A stretch of 40,468 nucleotides of DNA from an uncultured Candidatus Saccharibacteria bacterium (GTDB taxonomy: Bacteria > Patescibacteriota > Minisyncoccia > Phycocordibacterales > JACOZG01). The notes under the pieces are model-generated. The model was not told the origin of the DNA and searched no databases. It saw only the letters and a list, made by a program, of their open reading frames with translations. Below, piece after piece: positions 4,881-15,955 of the stretch; position 1 is the stretch's first letter; every line of letters starts with the position of its first letter. Both the position numbers and the translations under genes were made by a program. Location: NCBI GenBank assembly GCA_964360815.1, contig CAYHYA010000006.1:1-40468 (forward strand). The letters run 5' to 3'.

Positions 4881-5798
4881 ATGCCCGACATCCTTAACTC
4901 AATTTTCTGGATCGAAGTCGAGAAAATTCGGCCTAATCCGTTCCAGCCACGCCGTGAGTTTAATGACGATCGCTTGCGCGATTTGGCCGATTCCATCCGA
5001 CAATACGGCGTCCTTCAGCCGCTCGTCGTGACCAAGAAAGAGATCGAACGCGAGGACGGTAGCATTTATTCCGAGTATGAACTGATCGCCGGCGAGCGGC
5101 GTTGGCGGGCGTCGAAAATTGCCGGCATCAGTCAGGTGCCCTGTGTTATTCGGACGAGCGAGGATACCGATAAGTTGAAATTGGAACTGGCGATTATTGA
5201 GAATCTCCAGCGTGAAGACTTAAATCCAGTTGATCGGGCGCGGGCGTTTGATCGTTTAATCAACGAATTTAATTTGAAGCACGTTGAGGTCGGCGAGAAG
5301 GTTGGCAAGAGTCGCGAGTACGTCTCCAACACTTTGCGCATGTTGTCTCTGGCGGAAGATATTCTGAACGCCGTCGTCACTGGTAAAATTACCGAAGGCC
5401 ACACTCGGCCCTTGCTCATGTTAAGCGATCGGCCGGAACAGCAACGAACCCTATTTGTGGAAATCATCAAGCGGGGATTAACGGTGCGCGAAGCCGAAGC
5501 CATTGCTCGGCAAGTTGCGGTTGAGCGCGCGCGGAAACGGTCGGTCATCAACGACCCGGAAACAGCCGAACTCGAGCGAACCTTGTCGGCGAAACTGGGA
5601 ACCCGGGTGGAAATTGTTCGGAGTGAACTGGGGGGCAAGATGACGATCAACTTTCTCTCTAACGCCGATCTGGAAAATATTTTAAATGTTTTGGCGATGC
5701 CGCTGGTGGAGTCGGAAGTAACCACGGACCAACCGGTTTTGGCCGATCCAACGACTGACGACCCCGATCTCTACAACATCAAGAACTTTTCTCTTTGA
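4881..5798 (+). CDS. parB: ParB/Spo0J partitioning protein
   Basis: PNPFQPR, GVLQP, LIAGERRWRA, IIENLQREDLN and HTH; start placed at ATG 4881. Confidence 0.95.
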   Translation: MPDILNSIFWIEVEKIRPNPFQPRREFNDDRLRDLADSIRQYGVLQPLVVTKKEIEREDGSIYSEYELIAGERRWRASKIAGISQVPCVIRTSEDTDKLKLELAIIENLQREDLNPVDRARAFDRLINEFNLKHVEVGEKVGKSREYVSNTLRMLSLAEDILNAVVTGKITEGHTRPLLMLSDRPEQQRTLFVEIIKRGLTVREAEAIARQVAVERARKRSVINDPETAELERTLSAKLGTRVEIVRSELGGKMTINFLSNADLENILNVLAMPLVESEVTTDQPVLADPTTDDPDLYNIKNFSL

Positions 5799-7998
5799 GC
5801 AGTTGATGCGGATTGTGATTCGGACAAGTTTTGTCGGAACAGCGCTCGGGAATGGTTTTCGTCCCCTCCATCATTAAATGCGGGCACGGTCCGATCGGGC
5901 GCTGGTAGCCGCAAATTTTTCCCGTTGGTTTGTTTTTAACAATGTATTTGCATTTCGGATAATTGGAACAACCGTAAAACAGCCCATAACGACCGCGCTT
6001 GGTCGTCATGGTGCCGGTTTGACAAATTGGACACTTCACGCCGGTGTTGCCACTATCGTTCGCTTCATCATTTTTAACGTATTTGCATTTTGGATAATTG
6101 GCGCAACCGATGAAGCGCCCAAAGCGGCCAACTCGTTCGATCAACTTGCCGGTGCCACAATCCGGACAAACTTCGCCAGTTTCTTTCGGCTCGGCCAGGG
6201 CCTCGCCGCTCGCTTGTCGCGCCCCGGCACAATCCGGCCACCGTTCGCAACTTAGGAACTTGCCAGCCCGACCGAGTTTCCAAATCATCGGACCCTGGCA
6301 TTTCGGGCAATGCTGGTCGGCTGGCCCGGCCCCGAGATTGGTGATCTTGTCAATATTTTTTTTAGCTCGAACGGCCTTCTCGAACGGACCATAGAAATTT
6401 TTTAACGACTCAGTGTAATCAAGTTTGCCGGCGGCGATGTCGTCGAGTTCGTCTTCCATCCGCGCGGTGAAGGTGTCGCTAATGTAATCATGAAAGTGAG
6501 TGTCAAGAAAATCGCTCACCACTTCGCCGGTTTCGGTTGGGGCGAGGGCGCGATTTAGTTTAACCACATAACCCCGATCAATAATCGTTTTAATAATCGC
6601 CGCATAAGTGCTTGGTCGGCCGATGCCGCGCTTTTCTAGCTCCTTAACTAGACCGGCTTCGGAGTAACGATTCGGTGGGGCGGTTTGCTTTTCTTCGGCG
6701 GCAATTTTTTCGAGCTGGAGTTTTTCGTCCATTCGAACCGACGGTAACTCCACTTCCTCGCCTCGGGCTGCTGGGTCGGCGGCCAACCAGCCGTCAAAAA
6801 TGACTCGCTGGCCGTGGGCGGCAAACAAAAATTCAGTCCCCGTTTCGTACTGGGCGGTGATTTTAGTATGCATCACTCGAGCATTCGTCATTTGCGAGGC
6901 CACGGTGCGCCGCCAAATTAACTCATAAAGTTTTTTCTCGGCTGGCGTTTGGCCGGCCACGGCTCGTAAAACGTCGGTCGGCCGGATCGCCTCGTGGGCC
7001 TCTTGAGCATTTTTGCTTTTAGTTTTATAAACTTTCGGACCAGCCACATAAGTCGCGCCATATTTCTTCCGCGCCAGATCAAGCACCGTCGTCACCGCCG
7101 CCGCGGCCAGATTGGTGCTATCGGTTCTCATGTAAGTAATCAGACCAGCTTCATAGAGACGTTGGGCGTGGCGCATGGTTAGAGCGGGCGAGAGGCCGAG
7201 ACGCGACGAGGCCGCCTGTTGCAGGGTGGAGGTGGTGAAGGGCGGCCGCGGTTGCCGACTGGTTTCTTCTTCCTCCACGGCGGACACGCGCCAAGAGTTT
7301 TTTTGACCGGCGGCAATAATTTTGTTCGCCAGCTCCTCAGTTTTCGGTTCGAGTTGACCGGTAAAAATAATTGTTTGACCAGCCGCGGTTTTCAGTTCGG
7401 CGGTGATAATCCAATAGGTTTCAGGCACGAAGGCTCGAACCAGTTTTTCCCGTTCAACCAAAATTCGGAGTGCCGGCGACTGGACTCGTCCGGCCGAGAG
7501 ACCGTAACGGAGTTTCTGCCAAATTAGACCGGAAAGATCGTAACCGAAAATTCGGTCAAGCACTCGCCGCGCCTCCTGCGCCCGGCGCAAATTATTATCA
7601 ATCTGGCGTGGCTCGGCGAGGGCGCGGTGGACGGCTTCTTTGGTGATCTCGTGGAAAACTACTCGCTTCAATTCTTTACTTTTGAGACCAAGCGCTTCGG
7701 CGATATGCCAAGCGATCGCTTCGCCCTCGCGATCAGGGTCGGTCGCTAAAATGATTTCACTTGATTGTTCGGCGGCCGCTCGCAAACCGGCGACAATTTT
7801 TTCTTTCCCTTTGACCAACTCGTAATGAGGGACAAAACCCCGTTCGATGTCGATCGCGTTTTTATTTGATTTGGGTAAGTCGCGAATGTGACCAACGCTC
7901 GCCAACACTTGATACTCGTGATCAAGATATTTTTCGATCGTTTTCGCTTTCGCTGGGGACTCGACGATCAACAACTTATTTTCACTTTTTTTAGTCAT
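5779..7998 (-). CDS. topA: DNA topoisomerase I
   Basis: IVESPAKAKTI, DPDREGEAI, SAGRVQS, LITYMRTDS, C-terminal Zn ribbons. Confidence 0.98.
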   Translation of the reverse strand: MTKKSENKLLIVESPAKAKTIEKYLDHEYQVLASVGHIRDLPKSNKNAIDIERGFVPHYELVKGKEKIVAGLRAAAEQSSEIILATDPDREGEAIAWHIAEALGLKSKELKRVVFHEITKEAVHRALAEPRQIDNNLRRAQEARRVLDRIFGYDLSGLIWQKLRYGLSAGRVQSPALRILVEREKLVRAFVPETYWIITAELKTAAGQTIIFTGQLEPKTEELANKIIAAGQKNSWRVSAVEEEETSRQPRPPFTTSTLQQAASSRLGLSPALTMRHAQRLYEAGLITYMRTDSTNLAAAAVTTVLDLARKKYGATYVAGPKVYKTKSKNAQEAHEAIRPTDVLRAVAGQTPAEKKLYELIWRRTVASQMTNARVMHTKITAQYETGTEFLFAAHGQRVIFDGWLAADPAARGEEVELPSVRMDEKLQLEKIAAEEKQTAPPNRYSEAGLVKELEKRGIGRPSTYAAIIKTIIDRGYVVKLNRALAPTETGEVVSDFLDTHFHDYISDTFTARMEDELDDIAAGKLDYTESLKNFYGPFEKAVRAKKNIDKITNLGAGPADQHCPKCQGPMIWKLGRAGKFLSCERWPDCAGARQASGEALAEPKETGEVCPDCGTGKLIERVGRFGRFIGCANYPKCKYVKNDEANDSGNTGVKCPICQTGTMTTKRGRYGLFYGCSNYPKCKYIVKNKPTGKICGYQRPIGPCPHLMMEGTKTIPERCSDKTCPNHNPHQLLKEKSS

Positions 7999-8037: not shown

Positions 8038-8904
8038 TTAAAAAGTCAAACTGATTTCGCCAAGCTGCTCTCTGATGACGCCGCGAATCTCGAGTGCCGA
8101 CAAGCAGGCGTTGGCTTCAGCGATCGGTAAGGCCAACTGTTTGAGCAAGTCATCTCGTGTTAGTGGTTCAACGGTTAAAATTTCGACGACGCGTTGTTCG
8201 GTTGATGACAACCCGAGCGCCTCCGTTTCGTCCGCTTTGGTGGTTAACTCAAAACCAAGAGCGAGGAGCAGATCAGCGCTCGAGGTGATTGGGGTGGCGC
8301 CGTCGCGGATTAGTTGGTTCGTGCCAGAAGCGGTCGGTGAAAAAATTGAACCCGGGACGGCATAAACATCGCGATTGTAATCGAGGGCTAAACGCGCCGT
8401 GATCATTGTGCCGGATTTCTCACCCGCCTCGATCACGAGTACGGCCTTGGCCAGTCCGGCCATGATCCGATTGCGTCGTGGAAAGGTGTGGATACCGGCG
8501 GGCGCGAGTGGTTCTAATTCTGACAATAGACCGCCACCGGCGGCCAAAATCTTATCAGCGAGCAGACGATTCGACGACGGGTGCAACACTGCCCGGTCGA
8601 GACCCGAGCCGGGAACGGCGAGGGTTAGGAGGCCGGCGTCGAGGGCTGCGCGGTGGGCGATGGTATCGAGACCAATCGCCAAACCGGAAACGATCACGAT
8701 CGGATAACCGGTTAAGCCGGAGATTAATTTTTCCACCACTTCTTGGCCGTAGCGGCTGTGGCGCCGCGAGCCGACGACCGTCAGGTAAACATGATTTTCC
8801 GGCGGCAAAACTCCTTCCAGATAAAGTCCGGCCGGCGGATCGTTAATCTCACGCAACAGTGGGGGGAATTCCTCCGGAGGCAGTTTGCAAATTTCTTTTT
8901 CCAT
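8038..8904 (-). CDS. dprA: DNA-processing protein DprA
   Basis: VVGSR, IVSGLAIGLD, FPRRNRIMAGL, SGTMITA; classic dprA-topA order. Confidence 0.96.
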   Translation of the reverse strand: MEKEICKLPPEEFPPLLREINDPPAGLYLEGVLPPENHVYLTVVGSRRHSRYGQEVVEKLISGLTGYPIVIVSGLAIGLDTIAHRAALDAGLLTLAVPGSGLDRAVLHPSSNRLLADKILAAGGGLLSELEPLAPAGIHTFPRRNRIMAGLAKAVLVIEAGEKSGTMITARLALDYNRDVYAVPGSIFSPTASGTNQLIRDGATPITSSADLLLALGFELTTKADETEALGLSSTEQRVVEILTVEPLTRDDLLKQLALPIAEANACLSALEIRGVIREQLGEISLTF

Positions 8905-8974
8905 TCGCGTATTTTAGCAGGTTTTCCAAATCCGGTCTGTCTCCTGATTTGAATTTTCTCTTGTCCTATTTTCT

Positions 8975-9001
8975 CACGATCGTACTAATTTGGTACAATT
9001 A
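8975..9001. repeat. Left 27-bp inverted repeat flanking the PaaX-like gene; contains its -10 box TACAAT
   Basis: CACGATCGTACTAATTTGGTACAATTA is the exact reverse complement of 9616-9642. Confidence 0.92.
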
Positions 9002-9013
9002 ATTTAAATTCTC

Positions 9014-9589
9014 ATGAGAGTCAAGCCAAAAAGAAATAAAAGAATCACCAGCCCGGTGAAGCAAAAGGTTTTACTGTTGCTTTGTGCCGGATTAGTTTTA
9101 AATTTTAATCGATCAGCTAGTCGTCAAAAGTGGCTACTGCGTCGGTTACCGGGCGAGTGGCGGAAGATCAATCGTCGCTATCTCTACCGAATAATTAGGG
9201 AGTTTTACGACGAACGTTTGGTGAACTATCGAGAGTCACCAGACGGTACCATTGATCTCGTCATCACTAAAGAAGGGAAACTTCACGTCTCGCGTTTTAA
9301 TCTTGAAACAATGAAGATTAAGCAACCAAACCGTTGGGATGGTCGGTGGCGCACCGTCTTTTTTGATATTCCGGAGAAAAAACGATCAGCTCGAGATGCT
9401 CTGCGTGATAAATTGCGCGATCTTGGTTTTGTTGAGTTTCAAAAATCAGTTTTTGTTCATCCTTACCCCTGTGAATCAGAGATTGATTTCATCATCGAGT
9501 TTTTCGATATACGAAGTTACGTTCGTTATGCGGAGCTAACGAAACTCACCAACGACGCACCGCTCAAACTTCGGTTTAATCTACACTAA
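9014..9589 (+). CDS. CPR-type PaaX-like protein (winged-helix plus Cas2/VapD-like ferredoxin-fold domain)
   Basis: WDGRWRTVFFDIPE..RDALRDKLRDLGF..FQKSVFVHPY motif typical of the PaaX central/Cas2-like domain; no cas1 or array nearby. Confidence 0.85.
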   Translation: MRVKPKRNKRITSPVKQKVLLLLCAGLVLNFNRSASRQKWLLRRLPGEWRKINRRYLYRIIREFYDERLVNYRESPDGTIDLVITKEGKLHVSRFNLETMKIKQPNRWDGRWRTVFFDIPEKKRSARDALRDKLRDLGFVEFQKSVFVHPYPCESEIDFIIEFFDIRSYVRYAELTKLTNDAPLKLRFNLH

Positions 9590-9615
9590 TTTACTCGTGA
9601 TACTAAATAATAAAA

Positions 9616-9642
9616 TAATTGTACCAAATTAGTACGATCGTG
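9616..9642. repeat. Right 27-bp inverted repeat, part of a 38-bp palindrome (9619-9656)
   Basis: TAATTGTACCAAATTAGTACGATCGTG; palindrome arms TTGTACCAAA/TTTGGTACAA around ACGATCGT. Confidence 0.92.
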
Positions 9643-9771
9643 GTATTTTGGTACAACTGATTAAAACTAATTGAAACATGCGCAGATAGTTACGGAATAT
9701 AGCCCAATGGAAACAAGAAGACCCCGCGACGACTAGCGTGCGGGGTCATGGAATCCATGAAATCGAGGAGA

Positions 9772-10665
9772 CTAACTAGCTACCGGTGGCAGGATTCCAA
9801 ATCGCGGAAGCAGTTTGAGGGAGATCAGTTTGTACTGAAGAATCCCCACAAACGCCCCGAGGATTCCACCGAATAAAACCTGCAACGTTCGAGCGGAAAG
9901 CGATTGCCCTGGTTGGATGAGGAACAGGTAAGACCCGAGAGTTCCCAATGCGCTGGCAATCAAGCAGATTAGACGTTCGTTCGAGTGGATAATTACCACA
10001 AAACGCCAGGCCGCTCTAGTCACGATACGGATAAAGCAATAGGAATAAATGATTATTCCTAAGACCAGATTTATCGGTATGGCGACCACTAAACAAACCA
10101 GCATAAAAAGACACATGACCATCTTGATGAGTAAAAAACCCAACCAAGATTGATATGTGGCCAAAAGCGCCCGATGTTCTTTTTCCGGCAGTTCTTCTGC
10201 AAACCATTCGGTAATTTCGTAAAGACAGATCGCAAGAATCAGGCCGGCGACCGCAGAAAGTATTACTGCACAAAGTAGCACTATTTCTAGCTCACCAACA
10301 ACTGTCGGGCTCCAGTCGTTTTTAAGAACTTCTAAAAATTTACCAAAACACCAAAACCCGACGACCAGACTCGGATACAGAAACGGGTGTGGTTTTATGA
10401 TCCATCTCCCCGTGACGATAACCGTTCTCCACCACCGTGCCGGCGCTATCGTTGATCGTGTCACTTGTTTGATTTCCTGCCAGCCAACGAGACAAACACG
10501 GGTCGCCGCTCTAATTGTTTGTTGGAATTCGTACACAACATAACCGCCAGCGGCACCGGCGAATAATCCCAACCACCAGTAACCCGGAGTAGCGGCAACG
10601 GCGCTGGCTGTGCCGACCACTCCGCCAACAAAACAGGCCCAAGCAATCTTACTTGTTTCGGTCAT
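9772..10665 (-). CDS. Hypothetical polytopic membrane protein (accessory)
   Basis: Many hydrophobic helices; SD AAAAGGAG; hairpin GACCCCGC..GCGGGGTC (9720-9748) downstream. Confidence 0.75.
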   Translation of the reverse strand: MTETSKIAWACFVGGVVGTASAVAATPGYWWLGLFAGAAGGYVVYEFQQTIRAATRVCLVGWQEIKQVTRSTIAPARWWRTVIVTGRWIIKPHPFLYPSLVVGFWCFGKFLEVLKNDWSPTVVGELEIVLLCAVILSAVAGLILAICLYEITEWFAEELPEKEHRALLATYQSWLGFLLIKMVMCLFMLVCLVVAIPINLVLGIIIYSYCFIRIVTRAAWRFVVIIHSNERLICLIASALGTLGSYLFLIQPGQSLSARTLQVLFGGILGAFVGILQYKLISLKLLPRFGILPPVAS

Positions 10666-10805
10666 TTTTTTTCTCCTTTTAAAGAACAGGTCACCTTAAG
10701 AAACCCACTGTTTTCAGTTAAGCATGTTGATACTGATTCGTCAAGATTAAAATGGGAGTGAAAAATTAGAATTACCGTTCGGTTTTTGTTATCCTTACCA
10801 ACATC

Positions 10806-12077
10806 ATGCTCGATATTAAATTCATTCGTGAAAACGCCGTGCTGGTGAAAGAGGCGGTGCGGAAAAAACATCTGATGCTCGAGGTGGATAAATTACTCGC
10901 GGTTGACGCCAAACGTCTTGAACTCTTGCGCGCGGTGGAAGCGGCGCGGGCCGAGCAAAACACCACCGGTGAGAAAATCGCTACGGCCACCGATAAGACC
11001 GCACTGGTGAGTGCGATGACCGAACTAAAAGAAAAACTGAAAAAACAAGAGGACGAGTTGTCGGCGGTGATGAAAGATTGGCAGAAACTGATGCTCGACG
11101 TGCCGAACTTGCCGGACGTGTCGGTGCCGGAAGGAGAAACAGACGCTGATAATCAGGAGATCAAAGTTTGGGGTGAGAAACCGAAATTTTCCTTTACGCC
11201 GAAAAGCCACATTGAACTCTTAACCGCTAATGGTCTAACCGATTTTGAACGGGGCACTAAAGTTGCCGGTTTTCGTGGTTACGTTCTTGGTCGTGGCGCG
11301 GTCAGTTTGTCTTTCGCTCTCTGGCAACTGGCGCTTAATTTTTTAACCACGCGCGGTTTTGAAGCGATGCTCGTGCCGTCTCTCGTCAAACGAGAAAACT
11401 TGATTGGGACCGGCTATTTGCCCGCCGGCGCACCTGATCTTTACGCGACTCAAGATGGTGATTACTTAGCGGGCACGGCGGAAGTGCCGGTGATGGGCTG
11501 TTTTGCCGATGAAATTTTGTCGCTTGAATCGTTACCGAAAAAGATTGTGGCTTTCTCGCCCTGTTTTCGTCGCGAAGCCGGCAGTCATGGCAAGGATGTT
11601 AAGGGCTTGATGCGTTTACACGAGTTTTTCAAAGTGGAGCAAGTGGTTTTGAGTGAAGCGAAACACGACGAGAGCGTTCGCCTGCACGAGGAATTATTGG
11701 CCAACGCTGAAGCGATCATGCAAGCGCTCGGTTTGCCTTATCGCGTGGTGATTAACTGCGGCGGCGATTTGGGTTTGGGCGCGGTAAAGAAATACGATCT
11801 TGAGGTCTGGGTGCCAACGGAAGGGAAATATCGCGAGACACACTCGATCTCTTATTTCCACGATTTTCAAACCAGACGTTTAAATATTCGTTATCGTTCA
11901 GCCGAGGGCCGGCCGCTTTTCGCTCACTCGCTTAATGGCACAGCGCTAGCCACGCCGCGTTTACTAATTCCTTTTGTCGAACATTACCAACAACCAGACG
12001 GTTCGATTGCGGTGCCGGAAATTTTGCGTCCCTATCTCGGCGGGCTGACAGTGCTCGAGCATGGTCAGTCAGCATGA
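10806..12077 (+). CDS. serS: Serine--tRNA ligase
   Basis: MLDIKFIREN coiled-coil arm, GTAEV, FRREAGSHG, HSLNGTA. Confidence 0.98.
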   Translation: MLDIKFIRENAVLVKEAVRKKHLMLEVDKLLAVDAKRLELLRAVEAARAEQNTTGEKIATATDKTALVSAMTELKEKLKKQEDELSAVMKDWQKLMLDVPNLPDVSVPEGETDADNQEIKVWGEKPKFSFTPKSHIELLTANGLTDFERGTKVAGFRGYVLGRGAVSLSFALWQLALNFLTTRGFEAMLVPSLVKRENLIGTGYLPAGAPDLYATQDGDYLAGTAEVPVMGCFADEILSLESLPKKIVAFSPCFRREAGSHGKDVKGLMRLHEFFKVEQVVLSEAKHDESVRLHEELLANAEAIMQALGLPYRVVINCGGDLGLGAVKKYDLEVWVPTEGKYRETHSISYFHDFQTRRLNIRYRSAEGRPLFAHSLNGTALATPRLLIPFVEHYQQPDGSIAVPEILRPYLGGLTVLEHGQSA

Positions 12078-12930
12078 TTATTTACGATCCACGCCGCGCG
12101 AACGAGCTTGGTCGTGGCGTTTAATTTGCCTCTGTTTGGCTCTGCTCGTCACCAGCGTTGGTGGGGCGGTATTTTTCTTGAACCAAGAACGGTTTGCCCT
12201 GCGGGAGATTGTCATCACCGGCAATCGCCTGATTCCAACCACCGATCTCGTCTCCGCGGTTAAAAAAACTTTGTCGCGCGATCACTGGCTTCTTCGAACC
12301 GATCGCTTCTGGTTTTATTCGCCGCTTACGGTGGCGCGCGAGCTGTCTAATAATTTTGACCGCTTGATGGCGGTGGCCGTATCAGCGTCAACCTTTAATA
12401 CTTTGCGGGTTCAAGTGGTTGAACGGCAACCAACGGCGATCTGGTGTCGGGAGACCTGTTTTTATTTAGACGAAACCGGAACAGTTTTTGCTTCCGCGCC
12501 TGATTTTTCTCACGCGCCCGTGCCGGTGATCACCGGTGAATGGTCCCCGCGACCGGTTAACGCCACCACCACGCCGGTTCAGGCGGTTGGTCTCGGCACC
12601 CAACCAATCCCGCGTTCGGATTTTGGGCGGCTGCGTTCGCTGGTTTCAAAACTCAATCAATTTTTGGCGACCACCGTTTTGGCCGGTCAAACCATCTGGC
12701 GAATTGACGTTTCAACGGTTGGGGACTATGAGTTTTACTCCGAACCCCGAGAGCCCGATCAATCAGGATTTAAAATCATCAGCACGCGGCGGCAAACTGA
12801 AACGGAAATCATTTCTCTCCTTCACTCCACCCTCACGGTCGCGACTTTTAAAAACGAATTGGCCATCGGCCGAGCGCTGACCTCTCTCGACCTCCGTTTC
12901 CCGGGCAAAATCTTTTACCGTTTTGATTGA
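12061..12930 (+). CDS. FtsQ/DivIB-like POTRA-domain membrane protein
   Basis: Single TM, IVITGN POTRA start, VVERQP, C-terminal LDLRF motif. Confidence 0.7.
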   Translation: MVSQHDYLRSTPRERAWSWRLICLCLALLVTSVGGAVFFLNQERFALREIVITGNRLIPTTDLVSAVKKTLSRDHWLLRTDRFWFYSPLTVARELSNNFDRLMAVAVSASTFNTLRVQVVERQPTAIWCRETCFYLDETGTVFASAPDFSHAPVPVITGEWSPRPVNATTTPVQAVGLGTQPIPRSDFGRLRSLVSKLNQFLATTVLAGQTIWRIDVSTVGDYEFYSEPREPDQSGFKIISTRRQTETEIISLLHSTLTVATFKNELAIGRALTSLDLRFPGKIFYRFD

Positions 12931-12972
12931 AAAAAGCGGGGACAGATAAATCTGACCCCGCCACTTTTTTGA

Positions 12973-14183: not shown

Positions 14184-15955
<1,772 letters not shown>

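Follow-up and report, generated by a model that had tools for sequence, protein, structure and literature searches.

A PaaX/Cas2-like gene bracketed by paired palindromes in a Candidatus Saccharibacteria genome: a candidate REP/RAYT-like protein-repeat module

Introduction

Why would a small gene be enclosed between two copies of the same palindrome in a bacterium of the Candidate Phyla Radiation (CPR, or Patescibacteria), a group with tiny genomes, few regulators and few repeats? The question is raised by contig CAYHYA010000006.1 of an uncultured Candidatus Saccharibacteria bacterium from groundwater, of which a stretch of 40,468 nt (the window) was analyzed together with the bacterium's own genome (G000; 661 kb, 96.5% complete). 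At positions 9014-9589 of the plus strand, an open reading frame (ORF) of 191 aa encodes a protein resembling both PaaX and Cas2. We report here that this gene lies between two 38-bp dyads, that the same arrangement recurs in most members of its family, and that in relatives the dyads also occur as stand-alone copies. Together, these observations suggest, with a probability that we put at roughly 60%, a self-binding, autoregulated module of a protein-repeat system, analogous to repetitive extragenic palindromes (REPs) and their REP-associated tyrosine transposases (RAYTs).

The gene lies between two copies of one palindromic site

A repeat scan of the window covering 8500-10100 identified a 32-nt inverted repeat (8975-9006 and 9611-9642) that is 97% complementary, with 27 nt perfect, and whose arms, 604 nt apart, enclose the ORF. 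Each copy sits within a 38-bp dyad centered on the core ACGATCGT. The downstream dyad (9619-9656) is complete and reads TTGTACCAAA-N5-ACGATCGT-N5-TTTGGTACAA, with arms at 9619-9628 and 9647-9656, spacers at 9629-9633 and 9642-9646 and the core at 9634-9641; its two halves (9619-9637 and 9638-9656, 19+19 nt) agree at 84%. In the upstream dyad (8961-8998), the core (8976-8983) and the gene-facing right arm TTTGGTACAA (8989-8998) are kept, with spacers at 8971-8975 and 8984-8988, while the outer left arm (8961-8970) has decayed to TTGTCCTATT as compared with TTGTACCAAA. GC content is 0.39-0.45 over 8850-9749, which holds the module, versus 0.54-0.61 over 8100-8849 in the adjoining dprA gene. These results bear out the sequence-only reading of this locus, an earlier interpretation made without database searches, which had described perfect 27-bp inverted repeats around the gene, 38-bp dyads with a degenerate left outer arm, and an AT-rich segment with one ORF.

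A 23-mer of the half-dyad, TTGTACCAAATTAGTACGATCGT, is present at 8976-8998 (minus strand) and 9619-9641 (plus strand), and with 3 mismatches at 9634-9656 (minus strand). It had 0 matches in 100 shuffles and no match elsewhere in the 661-kb genome. The gene-proximal halves of the two dyads are identical at 18/18 positions, compared with 9/18 for the distal halves, a difference that makes the window an outlier within the family. When folded as RNA, the downstream dyad forms a hairpin of -15.9 kcal/mol (z -4.4), and the upstream dyad does not fold (-4.4 kcal/mol, z -1.0). The sense strand has no U-tract after the downstream hairpin, and an Rfam search of 8800-9900 gave no match near the gathering score.

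The protein is a minimal PaaX-type protein

PaaX is a phenylacetyl-CoA-responsive repressor of Escherichia coli and Pseudomonas, with known structures 8a39, 3l09 and 3kfw. In the 191-aa protein, a winged-helix-like region (residues ~14-94) precedes a Cas2-like PaaX_M domain (residues 106-179), the latter matching PF20803 in Pfam with an E value of 4.9e-24 (84.7 bits against a cut-off of 24). Cas2 profiles fall narrowly below their cut-offs (PF09827, 23.4 versus 23.8 bits; TIGR01573, 22.3 versus 24.5 bits). PF20803 and PF09827 are the only Pfam matches of the protein; no transposase family is among them, as the sequence-only reading had also held. The equivalog model for full-length PaaX, TIGR02277, reaches 31.3 bits against a cut-off of 264.55 and covers only model positions 81-152, and the PaaX_C effector domain is missing, the protein stopping at 191 aa.

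AlphaFold predicts the C-terminal half confidently as a ferredoxin-like beta-alpha-beta-beta-alpha-beta fold, with a predicted local distance difference test (pLDDT) score of ~90. The top Foldseek match is E. coli PaaX (8a39, alignment of 142 columns), followed by Cas2 and VapD structures. The aspartate of beta-1, D118, is invariant in 32/32 homologs and aligns with the aspartate of the Sulfolobus Cas2-type RNase 3exc, which we take to be catalytic. Cas1 (PF01867) has 0 matches in the bacterium's own genome, and PADLOC returned weak Cas2 matches only and did not place the module in a defense locus. Because the protein matches PF20803, lacks an effector domain and has no Cas1 partner in its genome, it is a two-domain PaaX-like protein and not a component of a CRISPR (clustered regularly interspaced short palindromic repeats) system. 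As modeled, it is a minimal PaaX-type protein, with a predicted winged helix and a Cas2-like PF20803 domain but without the PaaX C-terminal domain. The gene is present once in its own genome, the best homolog outside it is 69% identical, and no paa-type family was found among the 100 neighbor proteins that were scanned.

The bracket is shared across the family

If the paired dyads belong to the gene, they are expected at homologous loci as well. The family has 206 matches in a large protein collection, every labeled one of them Patescibacteria-type and many annotated by their sources as Cas2. Among 60 related genomes the gene occurs in 27, with 1 to 10 matches each and up to 10 in genomes of ~0.8 Mb. 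The suggestion that the family is expanded in CPR therefore holds for relatives, while the window's own genome has a single copy. A total of 107 homolog loci with both flanks were collected, 101 of them unique, and a bracket was scored where 44-nt windows up- and downstream were identical at 30 or more positions. Flanking repeats, which the sequence-only reading had proposed to look for around homologs, were found by this measure at 73/101 unique loci, compared with 4/300 cross-locus control pairs. The neighbors of the 101 loci are varied housekeeping genes in any orientation.

The anatomy of the site is similarly conserved. Measured to the dyad center, the median distance is -38 from the start codon on the upstream side and +38 past the stop codon on the downstream side. 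An 8-bp CGATCG-type core is near-invariant (mostly ACGATCGT, GCGATCGC, GCGATAGC, GCTATAGC or GCGGTCGC), spacers of 4-5 nt are weakly symmetric, and arms of 10-11 nt are 70-90% symmetric and differ in sequence by paralog. Paired cells reach 82%, versus 53.6% in shuffles and 30-44% with slid partners, and double-sided changes number 575 versus 197, figures that are inflated because the dyad set behind them, and behind the covariance model R1 built for these sites, was chosen for symmetry and upstream-downstream identity.

The perfect inverted repeat of the window could give the impression of element ends. Among the 73 loci, however, the two copies are direct in 30, inverted in 13 and tied in 30, and gene-proximal halves are better matched in 35 loci and distal halves in 27, so that there is no general difference between them. 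The four half-sites of one locus are about equally alike, at 12-13/18 positions. Since direct copies outnumber inverted ones and no proximal bias is seen, the repeats are two copies of a palindromic site and not terminal inverted repeats. Perfect identity ending at the core, as at the termini of an element, was considered and rejected: it is true in the window but fails family-wide (35 versus 27). Thus, of the proposed minimal element made of inverted repeat, gene and inverted repeat, the self-contained module stands as a family-wide feature (73/101), while the notion of terminal inverted repeats does not.

The upstream dyad overlaps a promoter-like site

The left repeat copy had been said to contain the -10 of the gene, and we find the same. 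A promoter-like plus-strand site, TTCTCA-17-TACAAT with TG before the -10, has its -35-like TTCTCA at 8971-8976 and ends at 8999 within the upstream dyad, with the extended -10 TGGTACAAT (8991-8999) inside the right arm. By dyad symmetry, a second extended -10 TGGTACAAT can be read from the sequence at 9618-9626 on the minus strand, facing back into the gene. Across the family, an extended -10 is found in the upstream gene-facing arm at 32/73 loci, compared with 8-13/73 for each of the other three arms; an inward antisense extended -10 in the downstream dyad is found at only 13/73. This contrast indicates that promoter overlap is common and that the back-facing promoter copy of the window is not. 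The proposed antisense -10 is therefore present in the window but is no family rule, and a general antisense promoter in the downstream dyad was rejected.

At homolog loci, the median distance from the end of the -10 to the start codon is 9.5 nt (start codons chosen naively), which suggests near-leaderless mRNAs. The dprA and serS promoters of the clade (window positions 8905-8925 and 10780-10805) have TG-extended -10 boxes, TGCTAnnAT or TGnTATnnT, with no clear -35, and promoters of this look are also seen in spacers L037, L038, L043, L042, L047, L049 and L048.

The module occupies a spacer that is short in relatives

Acquisition of the module as accessory DNA is expected to leave relatives in which the site is empty. 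The window carries, between the dprA and serS promoters, lineage-specific DNA (~8925-10775, edges approximate) that consists of the module and an orphan membrane-like ORF. The name of dprA follows Pfam; serS and topA are names that we presume from the sequences (seryl-tRNA-synthetase-like and topoisomerase-like). In 7 relatives (congeners G003 and G004 and five family members), dprA and serS are divergent direct neighbors, and the spacer between them, 1.9 kb in the window, measures only ~100-120 bp, with no dyad read in these short spacers. Relative G010 has a 55%-identical paralog in the dprA-serS spacer, in opposite orientation and with its own dyad pair, and G001 has a 33%-identical paralog beside dprA, likewise with its own dyad pair. 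The empty sites that the sequence-only reading had proposed to look for thus exist. Target-site duplication and exact insertion edges are not readable, since the congener spacers do not align. These comparisons suggest that the spacer acquired the dyad-gene-dyad unit as accessory DNA, dyads included.

The orphan ORF (9772-10665, minus strand) encodes a membrane-like protein of 297 aa that matches nothing in Pfam or PADLOC. Congeners lack a homolog, and 59 other genomes yielded only three partial matches, all weak; the ORF was considered as part of the module and could not be tied to it. A GC-rich hairpin, GACCCCGC...GCGGGGTC, at 9720-9747 lies at its 3' end, with a T-rich tail after it on the minus strand, and looks like its terminator. 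Paralogs beside dprA (L005, L011, L021 and L036, in G000, G010, G001 and G028) or a solo dyad there (G013:C1:396415-396458) were seen in five genomes, and other family loci neighbor ComEC-like, pilin, prepilin peptidase, UvrB and RecG genes. Such neighborhoods may reflect either a site favored for insertion or some connection with DNA uptake.

Dyads accompany the gene across genomes and also stand alone

To follow the dyads beyond the gene flanks, R1 was run over the 60 relatives. In the window, it matches the upstream dyad at 8958-9001 and the downstream dyad at 9616-9659, the latter on both strands. Gene and dyads occur together in 21 genomes, the gene only in 6, dyads only in 3 and neither in 30. 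The gene is thus found in 21/24 dyad-positive and 6/36 dyad-negative genomes (Fisher 5e-8, Spearman rho 0.74, with kin not independent), and 30/33 gene-free genomes lack any R1 match. Gene-free relatives have none of these dyads and carry ordinary GC-rich terminators instead. On the closed, gene-free 716-kb genome G024, R1 finds 0 sites; on G010, which has 9 genes, it finds 17, of which 8 flank genes and 9 lie elsewhere.

Dyads away from genes, a feature that the sequence-only reading had missed, are related to the paralogs of their own genomes. In G010, 13/20 dispersed dyads best match the dyads flanking a same-genome paralog, at 34-38/44 positions and involving 4 paralogs, when 9 candidates from the own genome compete with 100 from other genomes. 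The G010 paralogs themselves are 26-64% identical (median 42%), and none of the gene copies are near-identical. In G001, three 100% identical units of 45-54 bp have unrelated flanks, and the cognate paralog carries that dyad family. G052 has at least 6 copies of one dyad family at 90-100% identity. Metagenome contigs show dyads with the window's own arms at 4 or more different loci, with the likeness confined to 42-57 bp. Many dispersed dyads follow stop codons, separate convergent genes or adjoin ordinary terminators. In some cases, dyads of different families adjoin each other at 45-130 bp (G010:C22:212-382, G052:C9:3331-3421 and G052:C1:20259-20410), like REP clusters.

In the window's own genome, two orphan dyads belong to another arm family, ATTATTCC...ACGATCGT...GGAATAAT: C1:15923 (15905-15941) and C14:12943 (12922-12965). 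The cognate paralog of the ATTATTCC/GGAATAAT arm family is absent from this genome and present in congener G003. G004 and G013 also have dyads for which no cognate gene was found. The orphan dyad at C1:15905-15941 directly follows the stop of what we take from its sequence to be an EF-P-like gene, beside a small island with a 160-aa ORF of no known kind and a pair that is presumably HicA/HicB-like.

Two other candidates were considered and dropped. An equal-scoring dyad pair in G022 was not used as a case of dyad-only copying, since both dyads lie in an exact 409-bp duplication (G022:C1:5750-6160 and 11560-11970, loci L232 and L233, 100% identical), which may be a segmental duplication or an assembly artifact. 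A Y1/HUH transposase as partner of the dyads was rejected, as PF01797 occurs in 20/24 dyad-positive and 20/36 dyad-negative genomes and as G008 lacks dyads despite its 9 Y1 genes. A Y1_Tnp (PF01797) gene does occur in the window's own genome, at C1 ~5000-5800 on the minus strand, with an H-F-H motif and between two direct 45-bp units, CCAAGGGCTTTCCTTGGGAAATTGTGGGTGTGGT[G/A]TAATTT, each with a small hairpin and a -10-like word inside. This family is multi-copy in relatives (up to 9 per genome), and the gene with its 45-bp units may represent another system of gene and flanking repeats in these genomes.

Proposed mechanism

From this arrangement we infer how the module may work. The two 38-bp dyads are the predicted binding sites of the 191-aa protein. 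Its Cas2-like domain probably forms a dimer, by analogy with PaaX; the two winged helices would then sit on the 10-bp, paralog-specific outer arms, and the Cas2-like pair would cover the conserved CGATCG-type core. Occupancy of the upstream dyad by the protein would mask the extended -10 of its own gene and so bring about autorepression, as with E. coli PaaX at the Px promoter. The downstream dyad, as a second copy of the same site, would close the module, and in the window it would also cover the back-facing promoter copy. Each paralog would have its own dyad family, and in multi-copy genomes the dyads would multiply as ~45-bp stand-alone repeats. The window's own genome would then represent a minimal state, with one gene and its two dyads, no cognate copy beyond these, and a few orphan dyads left by a paralog since lost.

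Covariation between protein and site, which had been proposed as a check on the repeat and the helix-turn-helix, is consistent with a helix that reads the arms and a Cas2-like pair that reads the core. At residue 124, in the first helix of the Cas2-like domain, K goes with GC..GC cores (30/34) and R mainly with AC..GT cores (of 37, 25 T, 3 C, 4 G and 5 unassigned); at residue 128, E goes with the C type (23/24). Covariation with arm positions 13-16 is seen for residues 58, 63 and 64 of predicted helix 3 and for residue 52, which immediately precedes that helix. K/R124 together with E/D128 is a candidate specificity switch against the outer core base.

Several observations weigh against such a module. 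The N-terminal part, which is modeled as three helices and a hairpin (H-H-H-beta-beta), reaches a pLDDT of only ~50-58, and no Pfam DNA-binding or N-terminal PaaX domain is listed over it at E up to 1. The covariation is confounded by relatedness: among 6 independent pairs, ~3.7 change the same way, 0.3 the opposite way and 1.9 not at all, and for K/R124 against core type this test on independent pairs lacks power (p ~0.125). No clear dyad pair is seen at 28/101 loci, and 6 gene-bearing genomes gave no R1 match; the selection of the dyad set that inflates the pairing figures belongs here as well. At non-symmetric spacer positions, the two sites of one locus still agree at 67-77%, which fits recent copying better than mere shared binding. 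Mismatches in the downstream dyad are biased to G-T on the sense strand (90 versus 56), a hint of selection at the RNA level. Finally, a search for dyad half-sites and arms found no further cognate site in the own genome, where two other 10/10 arm matches have no adjoining core, and the benefit to the cell is consequently unexplained.

Alternative explanations

The copying signal raises the question of whether the protein itself moves the dyads. In such protein-catalyzed mobility, the Cas2-like domain would act as a nuclease that cuts or nicks the CGATCG core (as duplex, cruciform or single-stranded hairpin) and copies or moves the dyads, perhaps with the whole unit, and would be the non-HUH equivalent of RAYT/REP or of IS200-type ends. 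Such a reading would extend the self-binding module rather than exclude it. The invariant D118 (32/32, aligned with the 3exc aspartate), the identical 45-54-bp units at three places in G001, the dyad-only likeness over 42-57 bp at 4 or more metagenome loci, the presence of own dyads in every dprA-serS spacer insertion, the orphan dyads that outlast a cognate gene (C1:15923 and C14:12943 in G000; G004 and G013), the end of perfect identity at the outer edge of the core in the window and the independence of dyad distribution from Y1/HUH genes are all as it predicts. Yet near-identical gene copies are not seen (G010 paralogs are 26-64% identical, and the best outside match is 69%), the unalignable spacers offer no readable target-site duplication or exact edges, gene-proximal halves are not better conserved family-wide (35 versus 27), and no excision or circle joint is seen among assembled contigs, the only material searched for joints in this study. 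Moreover, PaaX uses this domain for dimerization and is not known as a nuclease (PMC9493321). We therefore regard catalyzed mobility as rather unlikely. An ordinary local repressor with two operators, acting by looping or roadblock, with dispersed dyads as operators of a regulon and only ordinary gene gain and loss, is less likely still. It would explain the PaaX-like operator geometry, and with it the self-repression described for PaaX (PMC9493321), the near-equal likeness of the four half-sites (12-13/18, as for two dimer sites) and the overlap of the upstream dyad with the sense promoter. Three 100% identical 45-54-bp copies, including their non-symmetric spacers, are however unexpected from convergent operators, and many dispersed copies lie between convergent genes or after stops near terminators and not in promoters. 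Orphan dyads without a cognate gene, a patchy multi-copy distribution with neighbors that vary by locus, and a protein that in its own genome would control only itself also argue against it.

Could the dyads instead act as RNA or single-stranded DNA hairpins (terminators, mRNA stabilizers or insulators), independently of the PaaX-like protein? The stable fold of the downstream dyad (-15.9 kcal/mol, z -4.4), symmetry kept by compensatory changes, the downstream G-T lean on the sense strand (90 versus 56) and the many dispersed copies at gene 3' ends point in this direction. The window's upstream site, however, does not fold (-4.4 kcal/mol, z -1.0) and yet keeps its core and one perfect arm, the downstream hairpin has no sense-strand U-tract, and upstream dyads lie mostly before the likely transcription start. 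Gene-free relatives have ordinary GC-rich terminators and no dyads, and the core type covaries with protein residues. An RNA-hairpin role may add to the picture, but it explains neither the non-folding upstream site nor the link to the gene, and as a full account it is quite improbable. An invertible switch, in which recombination between inverted copies would flip the gene or swap sense and antisense promoters, had been raised by the sequence-only reading on the basis of what the window shows, namely inverted copies with a promoter copy at each end; the opposite-orientation paralog in the same spacer of G010 could be read likewise. That paralog is only 55% identical and not an allele, no recombinase is encoded next to the module (as had been noted before), and direct copies are commoner than inverted ones family-wide (30 versus 13). 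In three runs of a single study (X2, X3 and X4), contigs show the native arrangement only, although contigs drop rare variants: X2 and X3 contigs identical to the window span each dyad natively, and an X4 contig stops within the right dyad. No assembly joints are listed at 8961-8998 or 9619-9656 among these contigs, and neither an inversion nor an excision joint at the dyads was found. Joints skipping dprA or topA to serS were not used because of their short sides and records under 95% likeness. An invertible switch is thus the most improbable of these accounts, with only a very slight chance of being right.

Implications

The self-binding, REP/RAYT-like module is the reading that we favor, and it would turn a gene usually annotated as a hypothetical protein or as Cas2 into a testable protein-repeat system. 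A bolder version, which we put forward only tentatively, is that the family is the dedicated partner of its own ~45-bp palindromes in CPR, with a helix that reads the arms and a Cas2-like dimer that reads, and perhaps cuts, the core, thus spreading both repeats and module. If true, the REP-RAYT way of life would have arisen a second time, independently and on a non-HUH scaffold. It would also provide the first example, outside CRISPR, of a Cas2-like domain that reads or cuts DNA in a sequence-specific way. The family could form a new class of repeat-associated proteins comparable to RAYTs, and its natural matched pairs of protein and DNA site could serve to study how PaaX-type and Cas2-fold proteins read DNA. 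The module may also serve as a marker of genome flux in organisms considered streamlined, and it cautions against taking these genes for CRISPR remnants. No description of the palindrome-bracketed PaaX/Cas2-like architecture was found in the literature searched (subscription-only papers and supplements lay outside its scope), in agreement with the sequence-only reading, which knew of none.

Comparison with known systems

IS200 elements are small (~700 bp) and have characteristic end features, and the present unit resembles IS200/IS605 elements in its ~700-bp size and in a single small gene between palindromic ends. It differs from them in having no HUH/Y motifs, in duplex-type dyads with arm-core-arm symmetry and in the lack of identical whole-unit copies. 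The imperfect palindromes flanking IS200 are described as essential for its transposition (PMC3337134). A terminal-inverted-repeat transposon is also unlike the module, which has no transposase match, one copy in its genome, a best homolog at 69% and no readable duplication. With Cas2 and VapD nucleases it shares the modeled beta-alpha-beta-beta-alpha-beta fold and the conserved beta-1 aspartate, but it falls below the Cas2 cut-offs, is fused to a winged-helix region, has no Cas1 in its genome and lies in no PADLOC defense locus.

PaaX offers a further comparison. In both proteins, a winged helix (predicted here) is followed by a Cas2-like PF20803 middle domain. The E. coli PaaX operator, TGATTC-N27-GAATCA, spans 39 bp; at Px, its own promoter, PaaX hinders RNA polymerase and so represses transcription (PMC9493321). 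Both systems would thus have a long dyad with widely spaced half-sites (TGATTC-N27-GAATCA for PaaX, 10-N18-10 here) that lies over the own promoter, which here is judged by sequence from a 38-bp dyad covering an extended -10. In contrast to PaaX, the present protein is without the C-terminal effector domain (31.3 versus 264.55 bits), and its neighbors in the window are the DprA gene and the orphan membrane ORF, with topoisomerase-like and seryl-tRNA-synthetase-like genes beyond and no paa genes. The conserved central CGATCG core, the second site after the stop codon, and the multi-copy, patchy distribution with paralog-specific sites and stand-alone site copies are also unlike PaaX.

The closest parallels are with REP/RAYT. 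A RAYT is encoded by a short gene flanked by its own palindromic repeats, and each paralog is tied to a single repeat family; the paralogs of any one genome have diverged strongly and include no identical copies, and REP repeats are 20-45 bp, extragenic, often at 3' ends and clustered (PMC3337134, PMC3733652). Here too, the gene lies between cognate palindromes (in the window and at 73/101 family loci), each paralog has one dyad family, paralogs are diverged without identical gene copies, and dispersed extragenic copies occur in relatives G010, G001 and G052, while the window's own genome has no dispersed cognate copy. The differences are that the protein is not an HUH/Y1 transposase (it matches PF20803 and Cas2 only), that the dyads have a conserved central core and not a GTAG/CGTC end tag, and that copy number is low, from a few to ~20 per genome. 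The dyad system is therefore not a member of the REP/RAYT family, since its protein is no HUH transposase; from the dyads that lie away from genes, REP/RAYT is nonetheless its closest analogy.

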